In this document: one piece after another, positions 899-16,122 of the stretch
Layout: the number at the start of each line of letters is the position of its first letter
Numbering within the stretch: position 1 is the first letter of the stretch
Assembly: GCA_031316235.1 (NCBI GenBank)
Contig: JALDRA010000001.1
Coordinates: forward strand, 4,020,001 to 4,052,000
Direction of reading: 5' to 3'
Source: Candidatus Scalindua sp.
GTDB lineage: Bacteria; Planctomycetota; Brocadiia; Brocadiales; Scalinduaceae
Length of the DNA: 32,000 nt
Notes under the pieces: generated by a model
Database searches by the model: none
What the model was told of the DNA's origin: nothing
What the model saw: the letters and a program-made list of their open reading frames with translations, nothing else
Position numbers and translations under genes: made by a program

Positions 899-1010
899 TA
901 TACTCATCTCATAATGGTTTTCGGAAAAAATCCGAGATAAAATTGAGCGAGTATACCTTCACCAAGATTTGATTTCCGGTAAAACCGAAAACCAAATCGG
1001 TTTTAGAATA
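899..1010 (+). repeat. Copy A of a ~108-bp double-hairpin repeat (MITE/PATE-like); core 901-1008, flanked by TA/TA
   Basis: TACTCATCTCATAATGGTTTTCGGAAAAAATCCGAGATAAAATTGAGCGAGTATACCTTCACCAAGATTTGATTTCCGGTAAAACCGAAAACCAAATCGGTTTTAGAA. Near-identical sequence recurs at 4370, 8934(rc), 12915(rc) and, diverged, at 12529(rc). Confidence 0.8.
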
Positions 1011-1086
1011 TCTACCAGCGATTATTTTATGGAATTTTACAGTATAAGTTACTCTATTTGAATCAGTTGTAATAACCAACTTTTCC

Positions 1087-1422
1087 TCAAAAAAATAATC
1101 CTATCCGCCTTGAAACCTCAAGTATATTCCATCCTTCCAGAGACGCCTTCTTGAAATTAGAGAGTATTTTTTCAGCAGTAATAGTTACCGTAGGTTGTTC
1201 GTTTGTCTGGCTGATCTCCAGTATTTCATGCCATATATGGTCATCCTGGTTCAAATTCTCCGGCTGAAGATCTTTCAGGCCGATTTCTGATGGTATAAAA
1301 AACACTTTTTCATATAAATATTTCTCAATATCCTTTAAAGAAAACAGACCACGAATAATCACTGTATCAAACTCCTTATAATTGGCTGCGTCTCTGTATT
1401 GATACGTGAATACTGTGTTCAT
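1087..1422 (-). CDS. hypothetical protein (111 aa), no recognisable motif
   Basis: ATG-initiated ORF (cat at 1420-1422) with no competing ORF. Lies between htpX and the helicase gene on the same strand. Confidence 0.4.
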   Translation of the reverse strand: MNTVFTYQYRDAANYKEFDTVIIRGLFSLKDIEKYLYEKVFFIPSEIGLKDLQPENLNQDDHIWHEILEISQTNEQPTVTITAEKILSNFKKASLEGWNILEVSRRIGLFF

Positions 1423-1582
1423 GATTGGGCCTTTTTTCCAGGATTAAGACGGATACTGTTTTTATTCTTATGTATACCCATGTGCAAAATAAACCGGCTT
1501 TCCGGACATAAAACCGACTCCAGCACAAAATAACAGATCAGGCTATTTCTTCCAGCAGTGGGCGGTACATATTGAGTCTTTT

Positions 1583-2551
1583 TTAAACCGGATCATTTTC
1601 CAATTGAGACAGATGCTTGATTCTCTTAAGCATATTCGGGTGTGTACTCAGCTTCTCCATCATCTTATCGCCAAATGTCAGACCAAGAGCGGCATGACGA
1701 ATCCTGGACAGCTCATAGGGATCAATGGTACCATCACGGTCCAGATCGAGCTGGCTCAAATCCCGCAGTTCACTCCTGGCGCGTGACGGATCATTCACAA
1801 AAAAGGCCTTAAGCCCCTCGGACTCTTTAAGCGCCTGCTTATCGATCCGTGCCGATCCATAAACCAGCTTATAGAGGGCGGACGCCATGACCGACGGCCG
1901 ATTGCCCAGGGCCACCGATCCTTTGTCGGCAAAATACTCCCTGATACGCGAGGCGTAAAGAACGAGCAGATTTGTAATAAAATAGAAAAAGAAGGCCGCC
2001 ATGCCGATCATCATGCCGCTCCCGCGGTCATCACGACGCCTACTGCCGAAAAATAAAAAATGCCATGCGAGACGATACATGATCATCGGGATAACCGACA
2101 ATATGGTGATCGTCACGACATCACGATTCCTTAAATGGCTGATCTCATGACCAATAACCGCCTTCAGCTCTTCCGGGTTCAATAAACCCATGATAGCCTC
2201 GGTTACCGCTACCCTCCCATCACGGATACCCCGCCCGAACGCAAAGGCATTGGGAATACCCATGCGTGAGATGCCCACGCGCGGCATCGGGATTTTTGCC
2301 CTGCGGGCCTGGTCTTCCACCATGTCATATAATTGAGGATGATCTTCTCTTTCAATGTATCGTACACGCATTGTCCATTCAACAATTTTTGGCCCGATCA
2401 TGAATTGAACAAACATAAACCCGAACGATATGATTAGATAGAAGCTGAAGCTGCCCCCGCCCATGCTTGTTCCAAAGACAACCACAATGGCATAGATGAT
2501 GGCAAATAATGCACCTAACAGCATATACATACGCAATTGTAAACTGATCAT
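1583..2551 (-). CDS. htpX: HtpX-type M48 zinc metalloprotease with an EF-hand-like Ca-binding loop in the C-terminal region
   Basis: 322 aa. Has N-terminal TM helices, the HEISH zinc motif (H135-H139), further TM helices, a C-terminal STHPNMLKRI motif typical of HtpX, and DLDRDGTIDPYE (aa 269-280). Confidence 0.85.
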   Translation of the reverse strand: MISLQLRMYMLLGALFAIIYAIVVVFGTSMGGGSFSFYLIISFGFMFVQFMIGPKIVEWTMRVRYIEREDHPQLYDMVEDQARRAKIPMPRVGISRMGIPNAFAFGRGIRDGRVAVTEAIMGLLNPEELKAVIGHEISHLRNRDVVTITILSVIPMIMYRLAWHFLFFGSRRRDDRGSGMMIGMAAFFFYFITNLLVLYASRIREYFADKGSVALGNRPSVMASALYKLVYGSARIDKQALKESEGLKAFFVNDPSRARSELRDLSQLDLDRDGTIDPYELSRIRHAALGLTFGDKMMEKLSTHPNMLKRIKHLSQLENDPV

Positions 2552-2982
2552 GTGATGCTCCCTCTTTAGTCACAGCAGGAGATTCCAGGCTCCTGTTCAC
2601 ATCAAAAGAGATGTGTTCATAGCCGACTCTCCCACCATGAAATAATTTTAAAGAAAACTCGCTTTGTAAATCGTGCCGGATGACGCGCTTTTATGATCCG
2701 CACCGTAAACGGGTTCATAGCCTCACCCCGCCGGAAAGTCTTCCACTTTCAGACTGAATTGTATCGGTAAATATGTGCGATGCGATCTGCAGTCAAACGA
2801 TACGCGGCTGGTCAATTCACTTCAGATGGAACCGGTCTTCACCTTTAATTTCTCTTCCAGTCATTACCATTCCCTTCTCTTTTTGTGTCCGGGCAGAGAC
2901 CCGCAATAAAAGATCCCTACTATTTTTTATGGCAGTCATTCTAAAATCTTCTGGAGCGGCAGCACTTCCCCTTTTTTTCACC

Positions 2983-3486
2983 TTAAAGCCATGGCCAGAC
3001 TTCAACCAGAATGGTATAACCAGCCACACCGGTTACCACAGCATTGACGATTGTCCAATAACCGGTAATTTTCGCTATAGACCTGTGCTGTGCCATCAAT
3101 AAGAAAAACATGAACCACAGACTTGCCCACATTAACCAGAGTACAACGAGGCCTGCGTCAGGCAAAGCAGTAAATGCAGTCGGCACCGCCACGATAGACA
3201 CCAGCAGACAATACCATCCCAATCCCTCATCTTCAAGGCTCCAGAGAGAATTAATGCCAACCCATAAATAGGTAAATCCGAACAGCAGGGACTGCATGGC
3301 ATAAAAATAAGGGGTTATTCCTTCCCCATGCAAAAAAACTGTCCTCATGGCTCCAGCAACAATGAGAATACCGGTAAACAGATTCATCGGAATCACATGC
3401 TTTGCTTTTAACTTTCCAAGAACCATCAACCCGTTCATAAATAAAACAAAACCTACATAGACTAATGCAGTACCTAACATTCCCAT
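2983..3486 (-). CDS. AmiS/UreI-family channel (urea / short-chain amide transporter family)
   Basis: 167 aa and about 6 TM helices. MLGTALVYVGFVLFMNG...MNLFTG...LLFGFTYLWVGIN...WYCLLVSIVAVPTA...LWLMWASLWF aligns by eye with H. pylori UreI (MLGLVLLYVGIVLISNG...MNFFVGG...LLFGFTYLYAAIN...WYSLFVAINTIPAA). Confidence 0.75.
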   Translation of the reverse strand: MGMLGTALVYVGFVLFMNGLMVLGKLKAKHVIPMNLFTGILIVAGAMRTVFLHGEGITPYFYAMQSLLFGFTYLWVGINSLWSLEDEGLGWYCLLVSIVAVPTAFTALPDAGLVVLWLMWASLWFMFFLLMAQHRSIAKITGYWTIVNAVVTGVAGYTILVEVWPWL

Positions 3487-3671
3487 GCGTACGCCCCACT
3501 CCTTATGATAAAATCTGTAAATAATAATGCCTTGAAGGATTTATTCCTGTGCAGAAAAATAACCACTGACAGCGGTGAATTCATCCCTGAAAAAGATAAA
3601 AAATAATTATATATGGCTAAAAGAATAAACACAATAGTATTCCCCTATTACATGAACGAAAAGGAGCAGGA

Positions 3672-4271
3672 ATGCGAAAAAGATATGGAGTTAAATTTAA
3701 ATCCCAAGTAGTCCTTGAGGCAATAAAAAACGACAAGACAATTGCTGAGTTATCAAACAAATATGAGATACACAGAGATCTTGTACAAAAATGGAAGAAA
3801 ACAGTAATAGAGGGAAGTTCAGAGCTTTTTTTGACAACAAAATCAAGAGGAGGTAAGAATAACGAAAAAGTAGTAGATGAGTTGTATAAGCAGATAGGCA
3901 AACTGAAAGTAGAAAATGATTGGCTAAAAAAAGCTATGACATTTTCAATACAGCAAAAAAGAAATTTAATAGAATGGTGGTGCCGTGAATTAAGTCTAAG
4001 CACCCAATGTGAACTGTTGTCGATCTCTAAAGGAGCCCTGTATCATGAATCTTTCACGATGGATCAATTCAGCATAGCAGTTATGTCATTTATTGATCGA
4101 CAGCATATGCAAACACCATTTTCTGGTAGCCGAAAGATGGTAGTAGAGTTAAGGAAAAATGGATATATTGTAAATAGGAAAAGGGTACAATATCATGCCT
4201 TTTTTACTCTAACGCACACCACCATTACTCCTTACCACATCAGCTTAGAGCGGTTTGAAACCTTCTCCTGA
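3672..4271 (+). pseudogene. IS3-family transposase remnant: OrfA (HTH + leucine zipper) fused in frame to the first ~80 codons of OrfB; homology ends near 4193
   Basis: MRKRYGVKFKSQVVLEAIKNDKTIAELSNKYEIHRDLVQKWKK...LYKQIGKLKVENDWLKK is IS3 OrfA-like. ...LSLSTQCELLSISKGALY...PFSGSRKMVVELRKNGYIVNRKRVQ is an OrfB N-terminus. There is no DDE domain, and the tail after RKRVQ is unrelated. SD AAGGAG lies upstream of the ATG. Confidence 0.7.
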
Positions 4272-4367
4272 AAGACTATTTCGGAGGACCTGCCCCCATC
4301 TTTCCTGTATTTCCAAATAAGGGTATTTGTTCGTGGTACACCGAGGACCGTCCCATTTATTCTTAAT

Positions 4368-4445
4368 TATACTCATCTCATAATGGTTTTCGGATAAAAT
4401 CCGAGATAAATTTGAGCGAGTATACCTTCACCAAGATTTGGTATA
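4368..4445 (+). repeat. Copy B of the double-hairpin repeat; internally deleted (core 4370-4443, 74 bp), TA/TA flanks
   Basis: Identical to the other copies through ...GAGCGAGTATACCTTCACCAAGATTTG, then jumps to the terminal GTA. The 34-bp second hairpin is missing. Lies 5 bp 3' of the hicB stop. Confidence 0.75.
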
Positions 4446-4448
4446 TCT

Positions 4449-4586
4449 TCAAAATGTTTCAATGTATTCACAGATAGTGGTTGGTTCTGGTATCGGCAAC
4501 CCGTCTTCTTTTAATCCATCTATATGAAATGAAATTGCTTCCTTGATATTTTCTTCCGCTTCCCTGACTGTCGAACCAGTAGAAAC
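4449..4586 (-). pseudogene. hicB: HicB-family antitoxin, 3' fragment (gene split by IS insertion)
   Basis: Minus-strand reading from 4586 gives VSTGSTVREAEENIKEAISFHIDGLKEDGLPIPEPTTICEYIETF*, with the stop at 4449-4451. It joins in frame to 6805-6876 once the IS and one 8-bp TSD copy are removed. Confidence 0.7.
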
Positions 4587-4613
4587 GGGTGCATTCCCAA
4601 TTTATTGTAAAAT

Positions 4614-6032
4614 TTATTTAACAATTCGAAGACTTCTCTTAAATTTTTTATTTTTAATTCTTTCCTGGTCGTCCCTTTTGTATTTTTCGATAACTTTATC
4701 GTAAGTACCGTTATATTTCGCGCATCTGATCTTGAGTATGTTATTAGCGTTTTGGATATACCACCAAGCTCCTGATCGTTTAAGCCTTGTATGGCTAATG
4801 AATTTATTGGCGCTTTCAATAGCACCGCTGCCAATGTGATATCCTCCACGCTTGGCGGAACTGTAATCCATCTTTTCACAATGATTTGTGAGATAGGTAT
4901 AAAACTTGTCAATTTTATCTTGAATATCTTGAGTTCGGGCTTTCATCTTTCCAAGACCGCCAAGCACCTCTTCATGGTAACCATAATATATTCTTGTCAG
5001 AGTCGCCTCACACCACTGTAGAGACTCTCTTGTCTCTTTTCCGTAATGGGCATTGGCTACACCATGGACATACTCCGAGCAATGGTAATAGTCGAGAATC
5101 TCTTTTGCCGAGGGAAATATTTCTTTACATCGGTTCCAGATCCAGGGAGCACCGTCTCCTATAATTCCCAGGCGTATCTTCTCGTGGGGAATAAGCCCGG
5201 CTTCTTTGATCTTAACCAAGTATTCTGCTAATTCGTGATCTGCACAAACCTGGTGCCAGCTAATTAAATGAATAATAGTTTGACCATCGATGAGATACAG
5301 TCTAAAACCTTTAATCTCTTTGTATTCTCCTTTGCCTCTTTTCCCTTTACGGGGGTGAGGACTTGGCTCGGGACGCATCGGCCCGTGGGCTCCATCCAGG
5401 GCAAGCATCATAATGGGACGACGAAACTTATCCACTGAGAGGTTTTCTATCTGCTTATCAATCTCTTCCCTGGGCGGGCAGACATCCAAAATTCCCACTT
5501 CTTGACCAATGGCATTCGTGGTCTCATGCATATGATGTTCACTCAGCTTTACTCCGGTTATTCTCTCGTAGGTTTCGCTGGCCGTCTCATAGGCCGTTTC
5601 GCTTGACAACCAGGCTTCCACATCTTGCACATCATATTGCTTCGATGATTCAGACAATCCAAGGGCTTCGTCTAAAGGATAGTATCCTAAACGACACGCT
5701 CTGCAATAAAAATAAGGCCTGGTTAATTCAAATTGTCCGGCAAGGGTTTGGATAGTCTTGGATTGTTTTCCTTGTCTTTGCATACCCTTGCCGCATTCGG
5801 GGCAATCGCAGCTTTGCTGATTCAATAAATGTCCAAATTTCCTCTCTATGAACCCAAGAATCAGTTGTCCTAATATCTCCGCTCTCTCTTCGAAAACAGC
5901 TTTTGAGATTTCTCCTAAATCTTCCATTGAGTACTCTTCCTCAATCTTATCCAATCGGGTGTCTAAAAAACCATAAAATAAAGCTCTCCAGTTATCGGAT
6001 GACTCTATCTTTCTTTTCACCACACAAGTCAA
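4614..6032 (-). CDS. DDE transposase, ISKra4-like (UPF0236-like) family
   Basis: 472 aa. Has zinc-ribbon CDCPECG...CRAC and candidate catalytic motifs LALDGAHGP, IIGDGAPWIWN and ILDYYHCSEYV. The TTG start is preceded by the strong SD AAGGGGG five nt upstream. The stop codon lies inside IRL. An identical protein is encoded at 13888-15306. Confidence 0.8.
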   Translation of the reverse strand: MTCVVKRKIESSDNWRALFYGFLDTRLDKIEEEYSMEDLGEISKAVFEERAEILGQLILGFIERKFGHLLNQQSCDCPECGKGMQRQGKQSKTIQTLAGQFELTRPYFYCRACRLGYYPLDEALGLSESSKQYDVQDVEAWLSSETAYETASETYERITGVKLSEHHMHETTNAIGQEVGILDVCPPREEIDKQIENLSVDKFRRPIMMLALDGAHGPMRPEPSPHPRKGKRGKGEYKEIKGFRLYLIDGQTIIHLISWHQVCADHELAEYLVKIKEAGLIPHEKIRLGIIGDGAPWIWNRCKEIFPSAKEILDYYHCSEYVHGVANAHYGKETRESLQWCEATLTRIYYGYHEEVLGGLGKMKARTQDIQDKIDKFYTYLTNHCEKMDYSSAKRGGYHIGSGAIESANKFISHTRLKRSGAWWYIQNANNILKIRCAKYNGTYDKVIEKYKRDDQERIKNKKFKRSLRIVK

Positions 6033-6055
6033 AAATACCCCCTTTCAAAAGACTT

Positions 6056-6721
6056 CTATCGCTCCCTGAATACATCTATGGCGAATAGTAACGCCTGACG
6101 TTCTAATACAGGCATGGATTTAAGTTTCGCTGTCCACCTTTTGGTCTTCCTCTTTATCCGTTCCCGCTCACGAAAGTTATTGCCAAGATAACGATAGTCG
6201 TGCAGTCCTACCGGAACACTATAGTTCATCCATAACCACTCCGTTGCTACGCCATGATGACAGACGGCCTGAAAAGAATGTGTCTGCCAGCTACGCAATG
6301 ATTCTTTGTATAAGGTTGACTCGTAACCGGATATCATCACCATGCAGGGAAGAGTTTTCAAAACTTCCAAAAGTTCGATGTGCTGCGCACGGCTATAGTC
6401 ATATTTATATAGCCGTCCATACTTTTTCCTTGTCTCGCGAAGATATGGTGGGTCACAATATACCAGTTCTTTTCCTGTGAAATGATAATTATTCAGATAA
6501 TTAATTGCGTCATCATGGACCAGTTCAAAACCTATTGGATGCATATTTGTCCACATCTCAACAACTTCCGAGTCAATTTCTATCCCAAAATTACTCCTGG
6601 CAGGTCGTTTGTTCCGTATAACAGCGCCACCACCCAAATGAGTCTCTATGTAGACATCATGGGGTGGCATAAGATTGATTAACTTTTGGAATACACCTCC
6701 TTTGCCGCCTGGATAATTCAT
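6056..6721 (-). CDS. D12-class (Dam-family) N6-adenine DNA methyltransferase, IS-borne, with no restriction partner visible
   Basis: 221 aa. Has the N-terminal NYPGGKG motif, ETHLGGGAV (AdoMet motif I-like) and YCDPPY (motif IV). Starts at ATG. Lies 23 bp upstream of the transposase on the same strand, inside the IRs. Confidence 0.8.
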   Translation of the reverse strand: MNYPGGKGGVFQKLINLMPPHDVYIETHLGGGAVIRNKRPARSNFGIEIDSEVVEMWTNMHPIGFELVHDDAINYLNNYHFTGKELVYCDPPYLRETRKKYGRLYKYDYSRAQHIELLEVLKTLPCMVMISGYESTLYKESLRSWQTHSFQAVCHHGVATEWLWMNYSVPVGLHDYRYLGNNFRERERIKRKTKRWTAKLKSMPVLERQALLFAIDVFRER

Positions 6722-6727
6722 GGAAGA

Positions 6728-6756
6728 ATTATCGTTGAAAACAACGAGGAAGTCAA
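6728..6756 (-). promoter_or_regulatory. Sigma70-like promoter inside the IS right end driving the methyltransferase; predicts a leaderless mRNA
   Basis: The minus strand reads GATC-TTGACT-N17-GATAAT-TCTTCC-ATG. The -35 is at 6751-6756 and the -10 at 6728-6733. Only 6 nt separate the -10 from the ATG (6721) and there is no SD. Confidence 0.5.
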
Positions 6757-6796
6757 GATCTTTTATTATATTTTACAAAAAATCGGGAATGCTCCC

Positions 6797-6876
6797 GTAG
6801 AAACACAACCGGGTAAATCCGGAACATATGCTGAATAATTGTCCGAACCTTTTTCAATGACTATTGCATAACGCAT
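6797..6876 (-). pseudogene. hicB: HicB-family antitoxin, 5' fragment
   Basis: ATG at 6876-6874. MRYAIVIEKGSDNYSAYVPDLPGCVST is a typical HicB N-terminus. It is cut by the IS at the GTAGAAAC target duplication. Confidence 0.7.
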
Positions 6877-6879
6877 TTC

Positions 6880-7068
6880 TCATCCTTTCTTTAATTTGGC
6901 TTGTTTGTAAATGCTATTCAAAGTTCCAGGCATGAGATAATCCGATAGTTTGCCAGGAACAGTGACACGCCCTTTTTTGAGGGTATGTTTATACTGTCAG
7001 TGACTTCCATAGTACTTGAATATCACTACCGGAACTCCATAACACTTCAATATTGCAATACCAAGCAA
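6880..7068 (-). pseudogene. hicA: HicA-family mRNA-interferase toxin with an in-frame TGA (nonsense) at codon 24
   Basis: Minus-strand frame reads (TTG)LGIAILKCYGVPVVIFKYYGSH-TGA(6997-6999)-QYKHTLKKGRVTVPGKLSDYLMPGTLNSIYKQAKLKKG*. The GSH(R/H)xxKH...KGRVTVPG...PGTL pattern is HicA-like. The stop lies 5 nt before the hicB ATG. Confidence 0.55.
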
Positions 7069-7081
7069 TCATCTATATAAT
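7053..7081 (+). promoter_or_regulatory. Candidate sigma70 promoter for the DUF1573 gene
   Basis: TTGCAA (7053-7058), 17-bp spacer, TATAAT (7076-7081), 67 bp upstream of ATG 7148. Confidence 0.4.
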
Positions 7082-7147
7082 AGCGCAATATCACCTTATA
7101 ATTAACCAGTTTATTCTTCCAAACAGTAAAAACCGGATTATCGTAAA

Positions 7148-8233
7148 ATGAGAAAACTGAGATATTGCATATCTTTGTCTATTGTATTTCTAACCACTTT
7201 TTTGATCTCCTTCAAAGACGTTCTCAATGCAGAGTCCTCTCCTGACGATCTTGTTAAAAAAGAGGCAGCCATCAACAACGATTTTAACGCTGGAGAAACA
7301 AACAATAATAATAACACTCACAAACAATCTCCAATAATCTTCTTCAAAACACCGAACTTCGATTTCGGTAACATCTACAATGGTGAGAAGCCGGAGCATG
7401 TATTTACCTTTGAAAACAAGGGAAAAGCAGACCTTGAAATCAGCAAAGTAGAAAGCTCTTGCGGATGCACAGCGGCAATACTGACGAATAAGACAATACC
7501 ACCCGGAGAAACAGGTGAGATAAAGACAACATTCAATTCAAGTTCTTTTCATGGAAAAGTCACAAAGAGCATAACTGTCCATAGCAATGACCCCAAAAGA
7601 TCCATTTACAAACTGACTATCTCGTGTACAGTAACGGAAGTAATAAGCGCAAATCCCAGAAGAATCAATTTCGCTTCAGTCTATATTGGCAGTGAAATGA
7701 ATAAGACAATTACCGTTACATCAGACTCTTCCTTCAACATTACTAAAATCACTTCATCAATACCCTTCCTCGATGTTTCAATCAAAGAAAAGAACGAAAA
7801 TGAATATACAATCAATGTATCATTAAAGGACAATCATGAAATTGGACGATTCAACGGCTCGATTTTTCTGGAAACTGACAACACAATCCAGCCAAAGGTA
7901 ATAATACCGGTCTTTGGAGACATAACAGGGGATATTACCATCTACCCTGAAAAACTTTATTATGGAAACATCAAAAAAGGGAGCGAAAGAACCCAGAAGG
8001 TATTTCTGAAACTTAATAGAGAAAACATAAAAATTTCTGGTATTAAAGTAGTTCCGGATTTCCTGAGCGTAAAAATTGTGGAAGATTACAGGAATAACAA
8101 TACGCAGATTCTGATTGAAGTAAAACTGCATGAGAATGCTGCTGTCGGCACATTAAACGGATTACTGGAGATCAATACAGATAGCAAAGTACAACCTGTC
8201 ATTAAAGTACCAATCGCTGGAGAAATAACGTAA
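7148..8233 (+). CDS. Secreted DUF1573-domain protein with additional Ig-like beta-sandwich repeats
   Basis: 361 aa with an N-terminal signal/TM segment. FDFGNIYNGEKPEHVFTFENKGKADLEISKVESSCGCTAA is the DUF1573 signature. The rest is beta-rich and repeat-like. Confidence 0.8.
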   Translation: MRKLRYCISLSIVFLTTFLISFKDVLNAESSPDDLVKKEAAINNDFNAGETNNNNNTHKQSPIIFFKTPNFDFGNIYNGEKPEHVFTFENKGKADLEISKVESSCGCTAAILTNKTIPPGETGEIKTTFNSSSFHGKVTKSITVHSNDPKRSIYKLTISCTVTEVISANPRRINFASVYIGSEMNKTITVTSDSSFNITKITSSIPFLDVSIKEKNENEYTINVSLKDNHEIGRFNGSIFLETDNTIQPKVIIPVFGDITGDITIYPEKLYYGNIKKGSERTQKVFLKLNRENIKISGIKVVPDFLSVKIVEDYRNNNTQILIEVKLHENAAVGTLNGLLEINTDSKVQPVIKVPIAGEIT

Positions 8234-8673
8234 ATCTGCAATAACAGAACTCCTGCCCTGCATTGCATCAAAGTAAAGGTATGAAAGTAGAACTGTCGAA
8301 AAGTAAGTTTTTTCCTATCGTACTTGCCATCCTCAGAGGTTATTTTTAAAGTCATTCGATTATGTCTGTCATGTGCAATTGAGCGAAACAGTAATTATCC
8401 TTTTATAAAAATTTTTAAAATTTACTAGAAAATCACTTCAAAGTAATATAAACAGTTAATATGCTATTCATTCAACTGTTCGGTTAAGCAACAAAAACAT
8501 ACATAAAATATTCAGTAATGTCCGTTTAGGTTTTTGCGTATTTAACAGTTATGTTTTTGGAAGACTTGCTCCAAGCTTACTTTTCTTCATTATGTCCCAT
8601 GAATGGCCACACTTATGTATGAATTGAACCCAATTTTGAAACGCTGAAACGAACCATAAGTAGGTTAGGTAAA

Positions 8674-9080
8674 TCAAAACCTGCCCTTCCATATTCTTGG
8701 ATCTCGCTTAGCATGAAATATAGCGATTACAATAATCAGATCATTGTCTGTGAAGTAAAAAATTCCGTATGGAAATCTACGGATTAGAGCTCTGCGAATG
8801 TTCTTGTAAATGTTTGGGAAAATTTTTGGACTTTCTTTAATAAGATTTAGAGTCGCATCAACTTCTACCAGTAAATTTGCTCCTGATTATTTTATCTGAT
8901 TTTCGTACCAATCGTATGCATCTTCTAAATCAATACTAAAACCGATTTGGTTTTTGGCTTTTTAAAAAACCAAAGCTTGGTGAAGGTATACTCGCTCAAT
9001 TTTATCTCGGATTTTATCCGAAAACCATTATGAGATGAGTATAATTCAGCCTCGGGGCGCAAAATTATCTTATTTCTCAT
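8674..9080 (-). pseudogene. parE: ParE/RelE-family toxin, disrupted by a repeat insertion after codon 12 and by an in-frame TAA
   Basis: MRNKIILRPEAE (9080-9045), then [repeat copy C], then DLEDAYDWYENQIK-TAA(8887-8889)-SGANLLVEVDATLNLIKESPKIFPNIYKNIRRALIRRFPYGIFYFTDNDLIIVIAIFHAKRDPRIWKGRF*. RFPYxIFY...HxxRDP is the ParE signature. Removing 110 nt (8932-9041) restores the frame. Confidence 0.75.
8932..9043 (-). repeat. Copy C of the double-hairpin repeat (core 8934-9041, 108 bp), inserted inside parE
   Basis: The first 57 nt are identical to copies B and E. The second hairpin has a different sequence but is still self-complementary. Flanks are TA on one side and TT (minus strand) on the other. 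Confidence 0.85.
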
Positions 9081-9111
9081 TTTTTCCTGACAACCTAGAT
9101 TTGACTTCATT

Positions 9112-9297
9112 TCACGGAGAACCAATATTAGGATTATTGTGGTATTCTTCCAGACGTCGATCCAATTCTTTTTTCTGTGCGTCTGTAAGTTCTACTGATT
9201 CTGGTACATTTGCTATGCTGTCCCAAATATCTTCAACAAATGTAATTCGGTCTTGTATACTTAGTTTTAATACCTCAGATAATATTTCTTTTTTCAT
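9112..9297 (-). CDS. Addiction-module antitoxin (TIGR02574-like), C-terminally truncated by TGA at a conserved Trp position; the ancestral ORF would be 9070-9297
   Basis: MKKEILSEVLKLSIQDRITFVEDIWDSIA...LTDAQKKELDRRLEEYHNNPNIGSP-TGA-NEVKSRLSGKNEK-TAA. Homologues read ...G.SWEEVK.... The ancestral TAA (9070-9072) overlaps the parE ATG (9080), a typical TA arrangement. Confidence 0.6.
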   Translation of the reverse strand: MKKEILSEVLKLSIQDRITFVEDIWDSIANVPESVELTDAQKKELDRRLEEYHNNPNIGSP

Positions 9298-9550
9298 GTA
9301 CTCTCCTCTCTTCTCTATGAGATTTTAAATATAAATTATAGCAAACATTTTGTTTGTTAAATAGCAAAATTAACCAAGTCCTGAAGAACAAGCTTTGAAT
9401 GACTATACAATTTTCACGTAACAGTTAATCTGCCTATAGTACCCGTCTCTGGAACATGATTATTGGGCAGCTATCAATTCACTTTGGTGAAAGAATGGAG
9501 GTTTGTTTATAGTGCGTAATCTGAGGTTTACACAGAATTCTTGACAGACT

Positions 9551-9615
9551 CAGCCAGGAAAGAATCAGGGACCATTGTGAAAATTCCACAATTCCTTCTA
9601 ATCCTTTCCTGACTG
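9551..9615 (-). other. Long imperfect hairpin 38 bp downstream of the 529-aa gene (possible transcript 3' end or stabiliser); no U-tract
   Basis: CAGCCAGGAAAGAAT (9551-9565) pairs with ATCCTTTCCTGACTG (9601-9615), 13/15. An inner stem pairs ATTGTG (9574-9579) with CACAAT (9587-9592). Confidence 0.3.
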
Positions 9616-9652
9616 TTATTACGATTACTTCATCCAATCAGAATGCGTCTGA

Positions 9653-11218
9653 TCATTGAAAACAATCCAGATCTGCATCAATTACCGCAAAATAGTCTTT
9701 TAAAGTATCAGTTTTTCTGAAAAAGCTAAACCCGACCCTGCCTGATGAAAGAGAATTATCTGAACCGTTCCAAACCATTGTGCCGTTGATATAATACGTT
9801 AAGTTAGGACCTCTTGCAACGACACGCAGTAAATTCTGACCAGACTCCCAATCAGGAATCCAACCAGAATTAACTATGCCAGATGAGGATGTCCATCCCT
9901 TAAGTGCTGTAGCAACACCGCCTACAGTCTTATATACAGAATATTCCCCTGAATTTTTATACTGAAACGAATAAAAATTAGTCGGTTTTCCATTACTCCT
10001 AATGGCTCCACTAGCCCTCACTATAAGGCGGTTAGGCTCATTATTCGTTGAATAGCGATATACCAATGCACTGAAATCAAAGTTTGAATATGTAGCGTTA
10101 TAAGTAGATGTGGCTGACTTGTTACTCACACCAGATGAAAAGTATTCGTACCACCAATCATGCGGTCCAGTACCTGCTATATCTACCTCCCAGGAACCGG
10201 AATCACGAATCCAGTCTGGCGCTTTATCATTGTATGACCAGTGTTCTTCAAAGCCTGCACATCCACCACCTCCACAAGCCGTATATTGGAAATAAGCAGA
10301 TTTCCAGGTACCTTCCGATTTATACCAAAGCCGTACGTAAACCGTGCTTCCATCTTCTGGTATTCCGCTTACAGTGTAGGATGTGAGTTCTCCTATATCT
10401 CTGTTAAGAATATCCTTCCCACCCCGTTTAGTTCCAACATGCAGCCACCACTGACTTACTGGAATTCCATTGGATGTCCAGTTAAAGGACACATCACCGC
10501 AAGTTAATCTCGAATTTTCTGCCGGACTGTATAACCAAGGGGTACTATTCCCACAATCTGGTTTGTAAGTATAGTCGTTAAATTGCCATGAACCATTACT
10601 CTCTTTATACCATAGACGTACATACAACGTTCCATTGGAAGGAATATTATTTACTATTTGACAACCACCTGTCACTGATCCGGCAAATATATCTCCATAT
10701 GGAGAATTAGCTAATGACGCCTGACTTGTCCCTACCCCCAGCCAATAGACAGTACCACTGCATTCATTCCAGCAAAATTGTTCAGTAGTATTACAAATTT
10801 GTGTGCCTGGTATCGGACTCGTAATCTCCTGTTTACATCCCTTTCCACTCTGTGTTTGATAAGTATAATCTTTTTTATACCACGTGTTGCGTTTTCGCCA
10901 CCATAATCTTACGTATAAAGTATTCCCATTTAGAGGTACCCCTGATACCGTTGCTGATGTGTTTGTTCCTACTGACTGATCGTATTTGTCTCCTCGTGTT
11001 GACTTGCTTGTTCCAGTACCGATCATAAGCCAATACGTATCCACACCTGTGCCCGAACTCCACGTAAATGTAACAGCTGTTTTCGTTAATGTTGAACCTG
11101 GTAATGGACTTGTCATCGCTGGATCTGCCGCCCAGGCTAGCTTATCTGTTGAAGATAAACAAAATACTATTAGAACGAAACCTGCAATTGCAGTAAATCT
11201 TCCTAATTTTATTCCCAT
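9653..11218 (-). CDS. Secreted protein: signal peptide, three tandem ~90-aa repeats, C-terminal ConA-like lectin/glucanase (LamG/DUF1080-like) domain
   Basis: The track ORF starts at TTG 11242. I prefer ATG 11218, which has GGAG 8 nt upstream and gives MGIKLGRFTAIAGFVLIVFCLSSTDKLAWA/ADP. The three repeats each end in LYVRLWW/YK...W...Y.Y (GNTLYVRLWWRKRNTWYKKDYTYQ, NGTLYVRLWYKESNGSWQFNDYTYK, GSTVYVRLWYKSEGTWKSAYFQYT). The C-terminus, NLLRVVARGPNLTYYINGTMVWNGSDNSLSSGRVGFSF, is jelly-roll-like. Confidence 0.75.
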   Translation of the reverse strand: MGIKLGRFTAIAGFVLIVFCLSSTDKLAWAADPAMTSPLPGSTLTKTAVTFTWSSGTGVDTYWLMIGTGTSKSTRGDKYDQSVGTNTSATVSGVPLNGNTLYVRLWWRKRNTWYKKDYTYQTQSGKGCKQEITSPIPGTQICNTTEQFCWNECSGTVYWLGVGTSQASLANSPYGDIFAGSVTGGCQIVNNIPSNGTLYVRLWYKESNGSWQFNDYTYKPDCGNSTPWLYSPAENSRLTCGDVSFNWTSNGIPVSQWWLHVGTKRGGKDILNRDIGELTSYTVSGIPEDGSTVYVRLWYKSEGTWKSAYFQYTACGGGGCAGFEEHWSYNDKAPDWIRDSGSWEVDIAGTGPHDWWYEYFSSGVSNKSATSTYNATYSNFDFSALVYRYSTNNEPNRLIVRASGAIRSNGKPTNFYSFQYKNSGEYSVYKTVGGVATALKGWTSSSGIVNSGWIPDWESGQNLLRVVARGPNLTYYINGTMVWNGSDNSLSSGRVGFSFFRKTDTLKDYFAVIDADLDCFQ

Positions 11219-11589
11219 TTTCTTCTCCTTTTTTGATTTCAATACCTATAAATATGCATCGTTACAAAGCCAACAACCTTCTTTTATACACAACCTCCCT
11301 TAATTACGTCTTCAAAACAGAGGATGGGGTTCATTATACAATGGAAACAATAGGTATAGAAGATACTATTGCTGAACTTGAGAACAGCATCATGATTGTT
11401 AAAATAGATCCAATAAAAGTTCTTTTCATATATATCCTGTTAAAAACAAAGCGGTAAAAGGGTCACCGTATTTAAGCATTAACAGACTTCCGAAAATTGT
11501 AATTCTTACTTGTGTCAAGGAAACCCAAAATTGAATTTTAAGAAGGCGATAGATCATGTAATGATTCGTGTTAATAGGCAGGTGCGGAT

Positions 11590-11682
11590 TTACCGAGATC
11601 GTACTGACTCATACCGATTGTCATCCTCTATCTTTAAATATTCTGCGTAGGTCATTTTTTTATGTTCTGCTGGAGAAATCAT
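11590..11682 (-). pseudogene. Possible N-terminal fragment of a Uma2-family (DUF820) endonuclease gene
   Basis: The short minus-strand ORF ...MTYAEYLKIEDDNRYE... resembles the Uma2 N-terminus (T.EEYL.LE....YE). Only about 30 codons remain before a stop. Confidence 0.2.
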
Positions 11683-11852
11683 AAAGTGCCTTTCCTGTAT
11701 AATGGTGTATCCAGACAAAAGTTGGAAATTGGCAGACAAACATTGTGAATAACCTATCCGAATTGGACGAATTTGTCAAATAGATACGGGATAACTGTTA
11801 AATCAAAACAGAAAGGTCCTGATAGGAGCTATGTAAAAATATCAATAAGAAT

Positions 11853-11880
11853 TTGACAATTATGCTCAAATTGTGATAAT
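11853..11880 (+). promoter_or_regulatory. Near-consensus sigma70 promoter (extended -10) upstream of the SOR-like gene
   Basis: TTGACA (11853-11858), 16-bp spacer containing TGT, then GATAAT (11875-11880). The spacer contains ACAATT-N7-AATTGT dyad symmetry. It lies 95 bp upstream of ATG 11975, which has a GGAG SD. Confidence 0.55.
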
Positions 11881-11974
11881 AGAGAGTAGAATTTTCTCTT
11901 TGCGCAAGGAGTTTCATTCAATGCATAAGCGTGTAAGTGAAGAGTAACTTTTTTAATCTGAGAGGAGAGTTGAT

Positions 11975-12406
11975 ATGTCAAATAGAAGAGAATTCATGAA
12001 AACAACAGCGGCAATTGCTGTCGGCGCAGTTGTTGGTAATGTATCGCCTGTAATGGCCGCTGGTTCCTGTTCGTTCCCTGCGGGGATTGTTTATAGCAGT
12101 GAGAAACCGGGGAAATGGTCTGGCAAGGAAAAAGGCCATGCACCTGTTGTTACTGTTGAAGGAAATAAAGTGACGGTAACCACGAAGCACGGTATGTCAG
12201 ACGCACATTATATTGTCAGACATACGGTCGTTTCTCAAGATGGAGAGGTTATAGGGGAAAAGACTTTTTCTTCATCAGATACAGAGGCAAAATCAGAATT
12301 TGAATTACCAGGAGGCGTCTCCAGATATGCGTGGGTGCGGTCCACACTGTATGCAACCAGTTTCTGCAACCTGCATGACCTCTGGGTTACACAGTTTAAG
12401 GCATAG
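11975..12406 (+). CDS. Tat-signal superoxide reductase-like protein (neelaredoxin/desulfoferrodoxin centre-II domain)
   Basis: Twin-arginine motif SNRREFMK followed by an h-region and AAG. Fe ligand pattern: KEKGHAP, HGMSDAH (H-x6-H spacing as in P. furiosus HPNTTEH), and CNLHDLW (compare CNIHGLW). Confidence 0.8.
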   Translation: MSNRREFMKTTAAIAVGAVVGNVSPVMAAGSCSFPAGIVYSSEKPGKWSGKEKGHAPVVTVEGNKVTVTTKHGMSDAHYIVRHTVVSQDGEVIGEKTFSSSDTEAKSEFELPGGVSRYAWVRSTLYATSFCNLHDLWVTQFKA

Positions 12407-12526
12407 CAGATACCGATGAATCTGGGTTTCTTTCAGATCTCATAGGGCACGGCAGCTGAATCGCCGTATTCTTTGAGGCCGGTGGTTTAATTCCAGTGCC
12501 CTTATACATGTAACGGTCAGTGAGCA

Positions 12527-12640
12527 TATACTAAAACCGAACTGGTTTCAGATTTTTTATAAAAAGCAAAGCCAGTTTGCGGGTACATTAGTTCCATTTT
12601 TTCCCGGATTGCATCCGAAAACCATTACAGGATGAGTATA
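12527..12640 (-). repeat. Copy D of the double-hairpin repeat, a diverged subfamily (core 12529-12638, 110 bp), TA/TA flanks
   Basis: The ends are conserved (TACTCATCCTGTAATGGTTTTCGGATGCAATCCGGG... and ...CGGTTTTAGTA). The interior is diverged but still self-complementary (ACCGAACTGG...CCAGTTTGCGGGT). Confidence 0.65.
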
Positions 12641-12675
12641 TCCTTCCAGATTCCATTGAATCGAGATAACAGACC

Positions 12676-12861
12676 ATGGTAACCTATAATTACATACTTA
12701 TTGCGATTGCTCTTATTGCAGGGCTTGTTGTTCTTAAAATCTTCTTTAAGACGATGAGATTTCTTTTCATGATCGTTTTCTTTATCATCATCGCCGGGGT
12801 GGTGGTTTACTGTATACCTCCTCTTCGTGAGTACCTCTCAGGGTTCGTCAATCTGCAATAA
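12676..12861 (+). CDS. Hypothetical small membrane protein (61 aa, 2 predicted TM helices)
   Basis: ATG-initiated ORF with a hydrophobic composition and no SD. Bracketed by repeat copies D and E. Confidence 0.3.
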   Translation: MVTYNYILIAIALIAGLVVLKIFFKTMRFLFMIVFFIIIAGVVVYCIPPLREYLSGFVNLQ

Positions 12862-12912
12862 TTTCATTACCGTTTTATCGGACCCTTACTTAATACATAG
12901 CGGTTGAACTAA

Positions 12913-13024
12913 TATACTAAAACCGATTTGGTTTTCGGTTTACCGGGAATCAAATCTTGGTTGCAGTTATACTCGCTCAATTTTATCTCGGATTTTATCC
13001 GAAAACCATTATGAGATGAGTATA
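12913..13024 (-). repeat. Copy E of the double-hairpin repeat (core 12915-13022, 108 bp), TA/TA flanks; overlaps the 3' end of the Fe-S protein gene
   Basis: Full-length copy. The last 4 codons and the TAA stop of ORF 13009-13788 are encoded by the repeat. Confidence 0.85.
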
Positions 13025-13788
13025 AATAACTCAACGAAGCTTTCCACGAGATAAGCAAGGTATTCGATATCAATATAGTCCTCGGCATTGCTGTCAAGGA
13101 AGAGTCTGCAGCTTGCCTCATATTCTTCATCGGCATCCCAGAAGCACAGATAGAGCGGCACACGTGGTAAGAGGTCAAATCTGCAGATATAATCAGCCTT
13201 TATCTTTCCCCGTTCTTCACTCCCCTCAAACTCACTGCAGCGGACTTTCAGGCCGTTCAAGTTACTGTTAAAGGTTTCAGCGATCTTCTCTTCCGACTTT
13301 TTCTGGAATGCCTTGACATGAGATGCCGTATTCCTGAAACTTCCCAATGTAACCCAGTCTCCAGACAATGGCCGTTTTCCCATTCTGATAATGTAGTCAT
13401 ATATTATGATCTTCGTCCAGGAATCCTTACAGTACTCATCGTTTTCAAACAGGCCGTCTTTCCGTACTTCATAAATTCTGTCCACCAGCTTGAGTGTAAT
13501 GGTTTCTCTTTCATTCCGGTTTTCATAACGGGCTCCGACAGAAAGAGCAGACTCATTAAAATTTATCTGCCTGACCTCCCGTTCCAGCTCATCACTGACA
13601 CGTCCGTAATTGTCGTCCATTGTTGCACCCGGCCTACAGGATCTTTCCTCATTATATTCTTCCTGAGCATAAGGGCAATCCGACAGATTCCGTTTTGCAT
13701 TGTTCACCTTCAGTGCAAAAGCCATGCACGTCAGCTCTCCGCAGTCCCCACAGTTTGACTTAGGTAATTTCTTAAGTATCTCAATCAT
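13009..13788 (-). CDS. Fe-S protein with an N-terminal RnfB/CFeSP-type 4Fe-4S domain (DUF3786-like C-terminal region); C-terminus remodelled by repeat insertion
   Basis: LPKSNCGDCGELTCMAFALKVNNAKRNLSDCP gives C-x2-C-x4-C-x16-C. ATG start at 13788. 259 aa. Confidence 0.6.
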   Translation of the reverse strand: MIEILKKLPKSNCGDCGELTCMAFALKVNNAKRNLSDCPYAQEEYNEERSCRPGATMDDNYGRVSDELEREVRQINFNESALSVGARYENRNERETITLKLVDRIYEVRKDGLFENDEYCKDSWTKIIIYDYIIRMGKRPLSGDWVTLGSFRNTASHVKAFQKKSEEKIAETFNSNLNGLKVRCSEFEGSEERGKIKADYICRFDLLPRVPLYLCFWDADEEYEASCRLFLDSNAEDYIDIEYLAYLVESFVELFILIS

Positions 13789-13887
13789 AAAATAACTTCC
13801 TGAATTTATTGGTAAATTGTGCTCATAAAAGAAAAATATTGTCTTTTATAGAAGCAAAACGGGTGCATTCCCAATTTATTGTAAAAT

Positions 13888-15306
13888 TTATTTAACAATT
13901 CGAAGACTTCTCTTAAATTTTTTATTTTTAATTCTTTCCTGGTCGTCCCTTTTGTATTTTTCGATAACTTTATCGTAAGTACCGTTATATTTCGCGCATC
14001 TGATCTTGAGTATGTTATTAGCGTTTTGGATATACCACCAAGCTCCTGATCGTTTAAGCCTTGTATGGCTAATGAATTTATTGGCGCTTTCAATAGCACC
14101 GCTGCCAATGTGATATCCTCCACGCTTGGCGGAACTGTAATCCATCTTTTCACAATGATTTGTGAGATAGGTATAAAACTTGTCAATTTTATCTTGAATA
14201 TCTTGAGTTCGGGCTTTCATCTTTCCAAGACCGCCAAGCACCTCTTCATGGTAACCATAATATATTCTTGTCAGAGTCGCCTCACACCACTGTAGAGACT
14301 CTCTTGTCTCTTTTCCGTAATGGGCATTGGCTACACCATGGACATACTCCGAGCAATGGTAATAGTCGAGAATCTCTTTTGCCGAGGGAAATATTTCTTT
14401 ACATCGGTTCCAGATCCAGGGAGCACCGTCTCCTATAATTCCCAGGCGTATCTTCTCGTGGGGAATAAGCCCGGCTTCTTTGATCTTAACCAAGTATTCT
14501 GCTAATTCGTGATCTGCACAAACCTGGTGCCAGCTAATTAAATGAATAATAGTTTGACCATCGATGAGATACAGTCTAAAACCTTTAATCTCTTTGTATT
14601 CTCCCTTGCCTCTTTTCCCTTTACGGGGGTGAGGACTTGGCTCGGGACGCATCGGCCCGTGGGCTCCATCCAGGGCAAGCATCATAATGGGACGACGAAA
14701 CTTATCCACTGAGAGGTTTTCTATCTGCTTATCAATCTCTTCCCTGGGCGGGCAGACATCCAAAATTCCCACTTCTTGACCAATGGCATTCGTGGTCTCA
14801 TGCATATGATGTTCACTCAGCTTTACTCCGGTTATTCTCTCGTAGGTTTCGCTGGCCGTCTCATAGGCCGTTTCGCTTGACAACCAGGCTTCCACATCTT
14901 GCACATCATATTGCTTCGATGATTCAGACAATCCAAGGGCTTCGTCTAAAGGATAGTATCCTAAACGACACGCTCTGCAATAAAAATAAGGCCTGGTTAA
15001 TTCAAATTGTCCGGCAAGGGTTTGGATAGTCTTGGATTGTTTTCCTTGTCTTTGCATACCCTTGCCGCATTCGGGGCAATCGCAGCTTTGCTGATTCAAT
15101 AAATGTCCAAATTTCCTCTCTATGAACCCAAGAATCAGTTGTCCTAATATCTCCGCTCTCTCTTCGAAAACAGCTTTTGAGATTTCTCCTAAATCTTCCA
15201 TTGAGTACTCTTCCTCAATCTTATCCAATCGGGTGTCTAAAAAACCATAAAATAAAGCTCTCCAGTTATCGGATGACTCTATCTTTCTTTTCACCACACA
15301 AGTCAA
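13888..15306 (-). CDS. DDE transposase, ISKra4-like (identical protein to 4614-6032)
   Basis: The track shows an identical 472-aa translation. Confidence 0.8.
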   Translation of the reverse strand: MTCVVKRKIESSDNWRALFYGFLDTRLDKIEEEYSMEDLGEISKAVFEERAEILGQLILGFIERKFGHLLNQQSCDCPECGKGMQRQGKQSKTIQTLAGQFELTRPYFYCRACRLGYYPLDEALGLSESSKQYDVQDVEAWLSSETAYETASETYERITGVKLSEHHMHETTNAIGQEVGILDVCPPREEIDKQIENLSVDKFRRPIMMLALDGAHGPMRPEPSPHPRKGKRGKGEYKEIKGFRLYLIDGQTIIHLISWHQVCADHELAEYLVKIKEAGLIPHEKIRLGIIGDGAPWIWNRCKEIFPSAKEILDYYHCSEYVHGVANAHYGKETRESLQWCEATLTRIYYGYHEEVLGGLGKMKARTQDIQDKIDKFYTYLTNHCEKMDYSSAKRGGYHIGSGAIESANKFISHTRLKRSGAWWYIQNANNILKIRCAKYNGTYDKVIEKYKRDDQERIKNKKFKRSLRIVK

Positions 15307-15329
15307 AAATACCCCCTTTCAAAAGACTT

Positions 15330-15995
15330 CTATCGCTCCCTGAATACATCTATGGCGAATAGTAACGCCTGACGTTCTAATACAGGCATGGATTTAAGTT
15401 TCGCTGTCCACCTTTTGGTCTTCCTCTTTATCCGTTCCCGCTCACGAAAGTTATTGCCAAGATAACGATAGTCGTGCAGTCCTACCGGAACACTATAGTT
15501 CATCCATAACCACTCCGTTGCTACGCCATGATGACAGACGGCCTGAAAAGAATGTGTCTGCCAGCTACGCAATGATTCTTTGTATAAGGTTGACTCGTAA
15601 CCGGATATCATCACCATGCAGGGAAGAGTTTTCAAAACTTCCAAAAGTTCGATGTGCTGCGCACGGCTATAGTCATATTTATATAGCCGTCCATACTTTT
15701 TCCTTGTCTCGCGAAGATATGGTGGGTCACAATATACCAGTTCTTTTCCTGTGAAATGATAATTATTCAGATAATTAATTGCGTCATCATGGACCAGTTC
15801 AAAACCTATTGGATGCATATTTGTCCACATCTCAACAACTTCCGAGTCAATTTCTATCCCAAAATTACTCCTGGCAGGTCGTTTGTTCCGTATAACAGCG
15901 CCACCACCCAAATGAGTCTCTATGTAGACATCATGGGGTGGCATAAGATTGATTAACTTTTGGAATACACCTCCTTTGCCGCCTGGATAATTCAT
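15330..15995 (-). CDS. D12-class (Dam-family) N6-adenine DNA methyltransferase, IS-borne (identical to 6056-6721)
   Basis: Identical 221-aa translation with the YPGGKG and DPPY motifs. Confidence 0.8.
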   Translation of the reverse strand: MNYPGGKGGVFQKLINLMPPHDVYIETHLGGGAVIRNKRPARSNFGIEIDSEVVEMWTNMHPIGFELVHDDAINYLNNYHFTGKELVYCDPPYLRETRKKYGRLYKYDYSRAQHIELLEVLKTLPCMVMISGYESTLYKESLRSWQTHSFQAVCHHGVATEWLWMNYSVPVGLHDYRYLGNNFRERERIKRKTKRWTAKLKSMPVLERQALLFAIDVFRER

Positions 15996-16001
15996 GGAAG
16001 A

Positions 16002-16030
16002 ATTATCGTTGAAAACAACGAGGAAGTCAA
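16002..16030 (-). promoter_or_regulatory. IS-internal promoter for the methyltransferase (copy 2)
   Basis: Same TTGACT-N17-GATAAT-N6-ATG arrangement as at 6728-6756. Confidence 0.5.
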
Positions 16031-16122
16031 GATCTTTTATTATATTTTACAAAAAATCGGGAATGCTCCCAGCAAAACAGCAGATGATTGAACAATCTGA
16101 ACGTGAGTACACCGTAAATAGT

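Follow-up and report, generated by a model that had tools for sequence, protein, structure and literature searches.

What kind of element is a repeat of about 108 bp that occurs five times within 12 kb of a bacterial genome, in both orientations, and has the potential to fold into two hairpins? The question is raised by a stretch of 32,000 nucleotides from Candidatus Scalindua sp. (assembly GCA_031316235.1, contig JALDRA010000001.1, positions 4,020,001 to 4,052,000), hereafter the window. An earlier note, made from the sequence alone, had proposed a non-autonomous mobile element, possibly also expressed as a structured RNA, which it considered not assignable to a known family; it offered as origins either a miniature inverted-repeat transposable element (MITE) of the IS630/Tc1-mariner type or a palindrome-associated element (PATE) of the IS200/IS605 type, and it advised a genome-wide search, the identification of an autonomous partner, a comparison of empty sites and a check against Rfam. 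Here we describe the evidence that the repeat is most probably a MITE mobilised by an IS630-family transposase, a reading to which we give a probability of about 85%.

When the window is scanned with the 20-base core pattern TAATGGTTTTCGGANNNAATCCG, five matches are obtained against 0.00 expected from a background of 100 shuffles, and they coincide exactly with the five copies already noted, on the strands given for them (Table 1). The same pattern, run on 185,579 genomes, each representing a different prokaryotic species, listed at least 120 stretches (loci L001 onwards). Three metagenome-assembled genomes (MAGs) of Ca. Scalindua/Scalinduaceae, i.e., SCAELEC01, RBC_AMX3 and a long-contig Scalinduaceae assembly, account for 119 of the 120; the sole non-Scalindua stretch, L113 from a Tepidisphaeraceae MAG, was discarded, since it matches the hairpin tip by chance over 26 nt and is no copy. 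Among the matches listed, the element is thus restricted to Scalindua. An nhmmer profile built from the window copies and run on 962 kb (the 120 loci and the window) gave 197 hits, 129 of them full length, the totals per Scalindua genome being at least 89, 75 and 27, and the advised genome-wide search thereby reaches at least 190 copies or fragments in these three. Mean column identity among the basic copies is 93%, across genomes that differ at the species level. Apart from the repeat itself, the window has no overlap with the 120 fetched loci.

Intergenic positions were found for 104 of the 109 copies that could be resolved. Between tandem genes the orientation is unbiased (30 copies in the same sense as the genes, 30 opposite), and intergenic regions of the tandem, divergent and convergent types contribute 60/24/20, close to the background of 379/98/96, with no preferred type. 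It can be proposed that copies gather between genes, in either orientation, because insertions within genes are selected against. The many copies, this intergenic location and the target duplication described below bear out the proposal of a non-autonomous mobile element.

The boundaries of the element can be read from Scalindua sites that exist in both a filled and an empty state. Another Scalindua repeat, of ~157 bp, reads CCTTG-TA-CCTGGG in five uninterrupted copies, and at L007 and L013 it reads CCTTG-TA-TACTAAAACC...GATGAGTG-TA-CCTGGG. Likewise, the filled site of L043 (gcgaga-TA-element-TA-aatcc) finds an empty counterpart in the related site of L026 (gcgaaa-TA-aaccc; gcgaaaTAaaccc). These two independent comparisons, of the very kind that had been advised, therefore define the element as TACTC...TAGTA, 108 bp long, with TA as the duplicated target. 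TA is present on both sides in 111 of the 129 full-length copies, and the flanks beyond it are variable, with a mild A-TA-T preference only. For the copies in the window itself, exact look-up of window proteins found no strain-level empty sites: the nuoN-like and DUF1573 proteins led only to short Logan contigs, which end at repeats, and the DUF3786 protein returned no record.

A duplication of 3 bp (TAN), hinted at by L007 and L013, was considered and set aside: the third base is mismatched in other copies, and the T to C change is compensated within hairpin 1.

The ends are more extensive than they first appeared. The earlier note had recognised TACT/AGTA as the only terminal inverted repeats, a view that does not hold: written in the same sense, the two consensus ends, TACTCATCTCATAATGGTTTTCGGAT and TACTAAAACCGATTTGGTTTTCGGTT, constitute an imperfect 26-bp terminal inverted repeat in which 19 of the 26 positions agree and both ends share the block TGGTTTTCGG at 15-24, and a motif scan recovers TACT-N10-TGGTTTTCGG at either end. 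In its general form, TGGTTTYCGG, this box occurs three times per element; the third, direct copy constitutes the left arm of hairpin 2, which is therefore an inverted pair of boxes.

The advised partner was found in the same Scalindua genomes, as an IS630-family insertion sequence (IS) with a matching terminus and TA flanks. By searching the end motif outside MITE copies, four SCAELEC01 contigs were detected that start with the same 123-125 nt, comprising the C-terminus of a transposase and ...CCTAAAACCATTTCGTAATGAGTA, followed by TA and then by unique DNA. Such a shared start is as would be expected of an insertion sequence that is present in several copies and interrupts short-read assembly. 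The IS630-family end at these contig starts, TACTCATTACGAAATGGTTTTAGG followed by TA, is identical to the 5′ end of the MITE at 19 of 24 positions. In the long-read genome, L077 carries at 948-1640 a degenerate IS copy encoding a remnant of 134 aa, for which 34 homologous proteins were retrieved (P0001-P0034; E-values from 2e-83 to 8e-13), one of them named IS630 family transposase by NCBI. The homologues have a DDE_3 domain (PF13358) together with HTH_29 and HTH_33 domains; PF13358, PF13592 and PF13551 were recognised on these proteins and on the genes of L123, a locus from the contigs that encode such homologues, which holds a complete IS of 1117 bp with TA on both sides, whose left end is TACCAGTCGTGAAATAAAATTCGAG and whose right end, reverse-complemented, is TACTCATGGCAAAATGGTTTTAGGC. 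Compared with the IS right ends, the 5′ end of the MITE is identical at 19-20 of 24 positions and its 3′ end at 16-17, and the IS left end reaches 11-12 of 24 with either MITE end; both ends of the MITE thus resemble the IS right end, rather than one the left and the other the right. The TA duplication, the partner with a DDE_3 domain and the termini shared exactly at the IS tip place the repeat among the IS630-mobilised MITEs, and the statement that it could not be assigned is to be amended to that extent.

A sister MITE family of ~178 bp exists in these genomes, with ends TACCCATCACAAATTGGTTTTCGG and TACCCATTGCAAAATGGTTTTAGG. It has a TAC tip and a TGGTTTT(C/A)GG box in common with the window family and with the IS630-type element, and its ends are closest to the IS variant in L077. 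Copies are located at L011 4158-4335, L013 455-632, L051 6547-6724, L056 5116-5293 and 1039-1216, L077 1640-1817 and L085 3079-3256.

Taken as a whole, the comparison of sequences suggests the following mechanism, with an IS630-family transposase as a plausible driver of the MITE. The DDE transposase, encoded by an IS of ~1.1 kb elsewhere in the genome, would bind the boxes, the TGGTTTTCGG block being the putative binding site; it would excise the element at the TACT/AGTA tips, and the element would re-insert at a TA dinucleotide, which would become duplicated on both sides. The two hairpins result from the internal inverted repeats of the element, and are no evidence of an RNA gene. Several points weigh against this picture. 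The match between the ends of IS and MITE, at 19-20 of 24 positions, is imperfect, and that of the IS left end reaches 11-12 of 24 only; some other IS may be the closer cognate, or cross-mobilisation by this one may have a low efficiency. Of the transposase genes retrieved, that of L123 is split (215 and 75 aa) and that of L077 is reduced to a 134-aa remnant; the window holds no IS630 copy, and an intact one is not shown for the window's own genome. Moreover, mobility is deduced from comparing filled and empty sites and was not observed, and a scan listing at least 120 stretches does not prove absence outside Scalinduaceae.

The family is strongly modular. Besides the basic class of ~112 bp, TA flanks included, there are classes of ~139 and ~166 bp; the element itself extends from 108 bp to ~170 bp with modules, below ~300 bp. 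In the large ~139-bp class, a GC-rich hairpin of 27 nt (AAGTCCTCGG...CCGGGGA) is inserted precisely at the central TA that separates hairpin 1 from hairpin 2; since this module was not found outside the MITE, we do not call it an independent element. In further copies, a GC-rich hairpin sits either in the hairpin-2 loop (CCCGCCCGGCC...TTCGGACGGG, or a longer one) or in the hairpin-1 loop. At the opposite extreme, mini-forms consist of little beyond the two ends, joined directly or through a short GC hairpin (L001 2588-2611, L017 6347, L044 4500, L110 2025), and deletion derivatives resembling copy B of the window recur in L004 and L025. As the mini-forms are made of the two ends, these ends are the conserved functional part, and their constant retention as a pair marks a transposase substrate, not an RNA.

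Other small repeats occur in these genomes. The ~157-bp repeat, a second, very abundant Scalindua family with long inverted ends (AGTGTTTGAACGAAAACTRCCCA...), gives more than 40 matches in the fetched loci (for example L001 314-481, L100 4157-4313, L051 4427-4582, L089 1047-1204 and L019 4571-4723); it hosts a nested MITE at the same TA in L007, L013 and L067, and is absent from the window. The GC-rich REP-like hairpin (CCCGCCCGGCC...TTCGGACGGG and longer variants) stands alone in intergenic DNA at L008 2966-2995, L111 919-980, L016 4308-4335 and L021 7960-7990, and is also nested, with no TA duplication, in the hairpin-2 loop of the MITE, as in L095 5305, L046 337 and L070 3941. A different hairpin, CCTGCCTGTGCGTAAGGAACGCACGCAGACAGG, occupies the hairpin-1 loop or constitutes the sole filling of mini-forms.

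The hairpins invite other explanations. Whatever the origin of the element, its copies could be genes or cis-elements for a structured RNA, namely a small RNA, an mRNA-stabilising 3′ stem-loop or a terminator, with the hairpins as the functional unit. The fold potential is indeed strong, given that the 112-nt unit, folded as single-stranded DNA with DNA parameters, has a minimum free energy of -21 kcal/mol (z = -4.9 vs shuffles), with hairpins at 1-57 and 68-100 that agree with the two-hairpin fold noted at the outset. Across 44 copies, 92% of the cells of this model are paired, and the change of T3 to C in L007 and L013 is matched by A to G at the pairing position of hairpin 1. Furthermore, copies A, C, D and E of the window all lie downstream of the 3′ ends of genes, and transcripts of other bacterial MITEs can influence mRNA (PMC2229807). 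However, the high pairing follows from the conservation of the sequence: pairs with a double change number 4, where 2.6 are expected, and 256 of 500 shuffles attain the covariation score, for which reason we do not claim structural selection. With the 44 basic copies, RNAalifold pairs the two termini rather than folding the two hairpins, with a covariation term of -0.13. The balanced orientation and a split among intergenic types close to background speak against such a role, as does the fact that the hairpins can be lost or enlarged (copy B, mini-forms, modules) while the ends persist. No Rfam family matches any copy at its gathering score in a scan of the whole window; by E-value, the best match of copy A is an unrelated snoRNA (E 0.5, 20.6 bits vs a gathering score of 75). 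The terminator scan found no terminator-like site within any window copy, and the promoter scan gave weak matches only (9/12), in which the terminal TATACT serves as the -10 hexamer. The suggestion of a structured RNA is thus left without support from Rfam, covariation, orientation or terminators; nothing here calls for an RNA role, which we regard as improbable.

The other origin that had been offered fares worse than the IS630 type. Movement by a single-strand transposase, either IS200/IS605 TnpA acting on a PATE or a RAYT acting on REP/BIME repeats, enzymes for which subterminal hairpins and not inverted-repeat ends are the recognised feature, would account for the prominent hairpins close to both ends and for a perfect terminal inverted repeat as short as TACT/AGTA, and GC-rich REP-like hairpins are present in these genomes, nested in some of the copies. 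Yet the ends are related inverted repeats with a common 10-bp box, they match an insertion sequence of the IS630 and not of the IS200/IS605 family, and with 108 bp and an A+T-rich composition the element is unlike REPs, which are GC-rich, of 20-40 nt and free of a target duplication. PATEs, for their part, have asymmetric ends. To our knowledge, moreover, insertion of the IS200/IS605 type produces no target duplication. As a 2-bp TA duplication and inverted ends are demonstrated, both the PATE and the REP/RAYT explanations fail, and we give them hardly any credence. An element once mobile could also have been retained by the host as a dispersed protein-binding site, its three TGGTTTYCGG boxes being bound by a regulator, host-encoded or domesticated, or by a nucleoid protein with a role in genome organisation or regulation. 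Three boxes per element and the high identity among species-level different genomes would fit, but recent amplification predicts an equally high identity, the insertion sites are neither shared nor positionally conserved in the sample examined, orthologous sites being empty elsewhere, many copies are decayed, truncated or nested, and the only known candidate for a binding protein is the transposase; such a function seems very improbable to us. Rather unlikely, though worth stating, is a broader possibility, that Scalindua harbours an undescribed ecosystem of interacting small mobile DNAs, composed of the modular MITE, its ~178-bp sister, the ~157-bp family in which it nests and the REP-like hairpins in its loops, with some MITE copies co-opted as 3′ ends and stops of genes, in the manner of copy E, or, through their triple boxes, as regulator sites. 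If true, this ecosystem would influence both the expression of genes and the plasticity of the genome in a bacterium of global importance to the nitrogen cycle.

Returning to the IS630-mobilised MITE, several known systems offer a frame for it. The closest analogue is RUP with IS630-Spn1 of Streptococcus pneumoniae. RUP has 107 bp, ~108 intergenic copies, a TA target and ends that resemble those of IS630-Spn1, which has been proposed to move it in trans, and it tends to insert in insertion sequences (PMC2229807). The likeness, in organisation alone, concerns the length (107 vs 108 bp), the non-coding nature, the ~100 or more intergenic copies and the TA target, as well as the habit of landing in or beside other elements, copy B of the window lying amid IS fragments and other Scalindua copies being nested in a repeat. 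In contrast, the Scalindua inverted repeats are longer, consisting of a tip plus an internal box (~26 bp vs 9 bp in RUP; PMC2229807), the family is strongly modular with its GC-rich hairpin modules, and the host belongs to another phylum (Planctomycetota, anammox); kinship of sequence is not expected. Correia/NEMIS elements of Neisseria, again compared for organisation alone, end in TA, duplicate their target and possess inverted repeats of ~24-26 bp; they fall into size classes set by an internal block (~107/155 bp vs ~112/139/166 bp in Scalindua), and their transcripts fold into long stem-loops (PMC2229807). They differ in sequence and host; an IHF site and promoter motifs, which Correia elements have, are not known from the Scalindua family, and their cognate transposase is not established in the review (PMC2229807), whereas Scalindua has a candidate IS630 partner. 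With the IS630/Tc1/mariner insertion sequences themselves, the common traits are TA duplication, a DDE_3 transposase, found here in the 1117-bp partner, and termini shared with the MITE; unlike them, the window element encodes no protein and would be a non-autonomous derivative or mimic. ERIC/IRU and BOX elements are likewise imperfect palindromes of ~100-130 bp, intergenic, RNA-foldable and with internal insertions at fixed points (PMC2229807), but they have no known partner transposase, while the ends of the Scalindua MITE and its IS630 partner provide a route of mobilisation.

Conceptually, this is another example of a well-known class and not a surprising one: the kind of element is ordinary, and it is the family that is newly described for Scalindua. 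In the searchable library, the literature on Scalindua or anammox bacteria in combination with MITE, IS630 or repeats yielded no description of it, nor of any MITEs in these bacteria. From a practical perspective, the profile can be used for masking in annotation, where it must be considered that gene ends can be derived from a MITE, and insertion polymorphisms can serve as markers when populations of marine anammox bacteria are studied at the level of strains. Furthermore, a MITE and IS630 pair with ends composed of tip plus box, and with natural mini-forms, is convenient for defining the minimal substrate of the IS630 family.

The copies in the window, collected in Table 1, illustrate both the intact and the decayed states of the family. 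The description given of them earlier was accurate in its details: copy D is a diverged member, with 73-78% identity to the others, TA flanks every copy save one side of copy C, where TT is found, and copy B has lost 34 nt, comprising most of hairpin 2 and the right-end box, while it retains the terminal TA. Because of this deletion copy B is probably immobile. It is equally correct that the nuo half of the window has no copy; nor does it have any other repeat common to the fetched Scalindua loci. The 3′ terminus of copy A is AGAA, not AGTA, and its hairpin 1 is followed by the central TA (954-955), the place of the optional 27-nt GC-rich module in other copies. The element is non-coding, and the open reading frames (ORFs) across the window copies are either chance ORFs or the tail of a neighbouring DUF3786 gene. 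The latter case is that of copy E: the DUF3786/Fe-S ORF 13009-13788(-) takes its TAA stop and its final four or five codons (…F-I-L-I-S) from the first 14 nt of this copy (window 13009-13024); before the insertion, this frame would have run seven codons longer.

Table 1. The five copies of the repeat in the window and the parts of copy A (positions counted from the first nucleotide of the window; outer coordinates of copies include the flanking dinucleotides).
Feature	Position	Strand	Description
Copy A	899..1010 (element 901-1008)	+	Full-length basic MITE; TA at 899-900 and 1009-1010; nhmmer 110.5 bits, profile positions 1-111
Copy A, left terminal inverted repeat	901..926	+	TACT, 10 nt, TGGTTTTCGG box at 915-924; 19-20/24 identical to the IS630-family right inverted repeat
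Copy A, hairpin 1	901..953	+	TACTC..CTCA pairs with TGAG.GAGTA; tip TCGGA-AAA-TCCGA
Copy A, hairpin 2	966..998	+	GATTTGATTTCCGG pairs with CCGAAAACCAAATC; left arm 970-979 is the third, direct TGGTTTYCGG box
Copy A, right terminal inverted repeat	983..1008	-	Box CCGAAAACCA at 985-994 (minus strand: TGGTTTTCGG); 15-24 counted from the end
Copy B	4368..4445 (element 4370-4443)	+	Deletion derivative, profile positions 1-78; situated amid IS fragments
Copy C	8932..9043 (element 8934-9041)	-	Full-length basic MITE, 112.0 bits; convergent intergenic region
Copy D	12527..12640 (element 12529-12638)	-	Diverged full-length copy, TA on both sides, 100.1 bits
Copy E	12913..13024 (element 12915-13022)	-	Full-length basic MITE, 111.7 bits

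The surroundings of these copies are rich in other mobile DNA. Two copies of a 2214-bp sequence, 99.95% identical, occupy 4583-6796 and 13857-16070 of the window, with short inverted ends ACGGGTGCATTCCC... and ...GGGAATGCTCCC; each comprises an ORF for a 472-aa UPF0236 (ISLre2-type) transposase and another of 221 aa with a partial match to D12 N6-adenine methyltransferase, and the pair has the appearance of an insertion sequence that carries a passenger gene and has recently been active. At 3672-4271(+) there is a truncated IS3-like OrfAB with HTH_Tnp_1 and HTH_21 and no rve domain, overlapped by the Rfam family group-II-D1D4-2 at 4198-4297(-) (67 bits, the gathering score being 36); its vicinity lacks an intact reverse-transcriptase ORF. 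These remnants, copy B and the ISLre2 copy make up a small mobile-element graveyard. In turn, two Logan short-read contigs from run SRR28338161, L127 (corresponding to window 6797-8962) and L126, encode proteins identical to those of window ORFs; L127 ends ~30 nt inside copy C and L126 at the boundary of the ISLre2 copy, which means that such repeats fragment the short-read assemblies of Scalindua.

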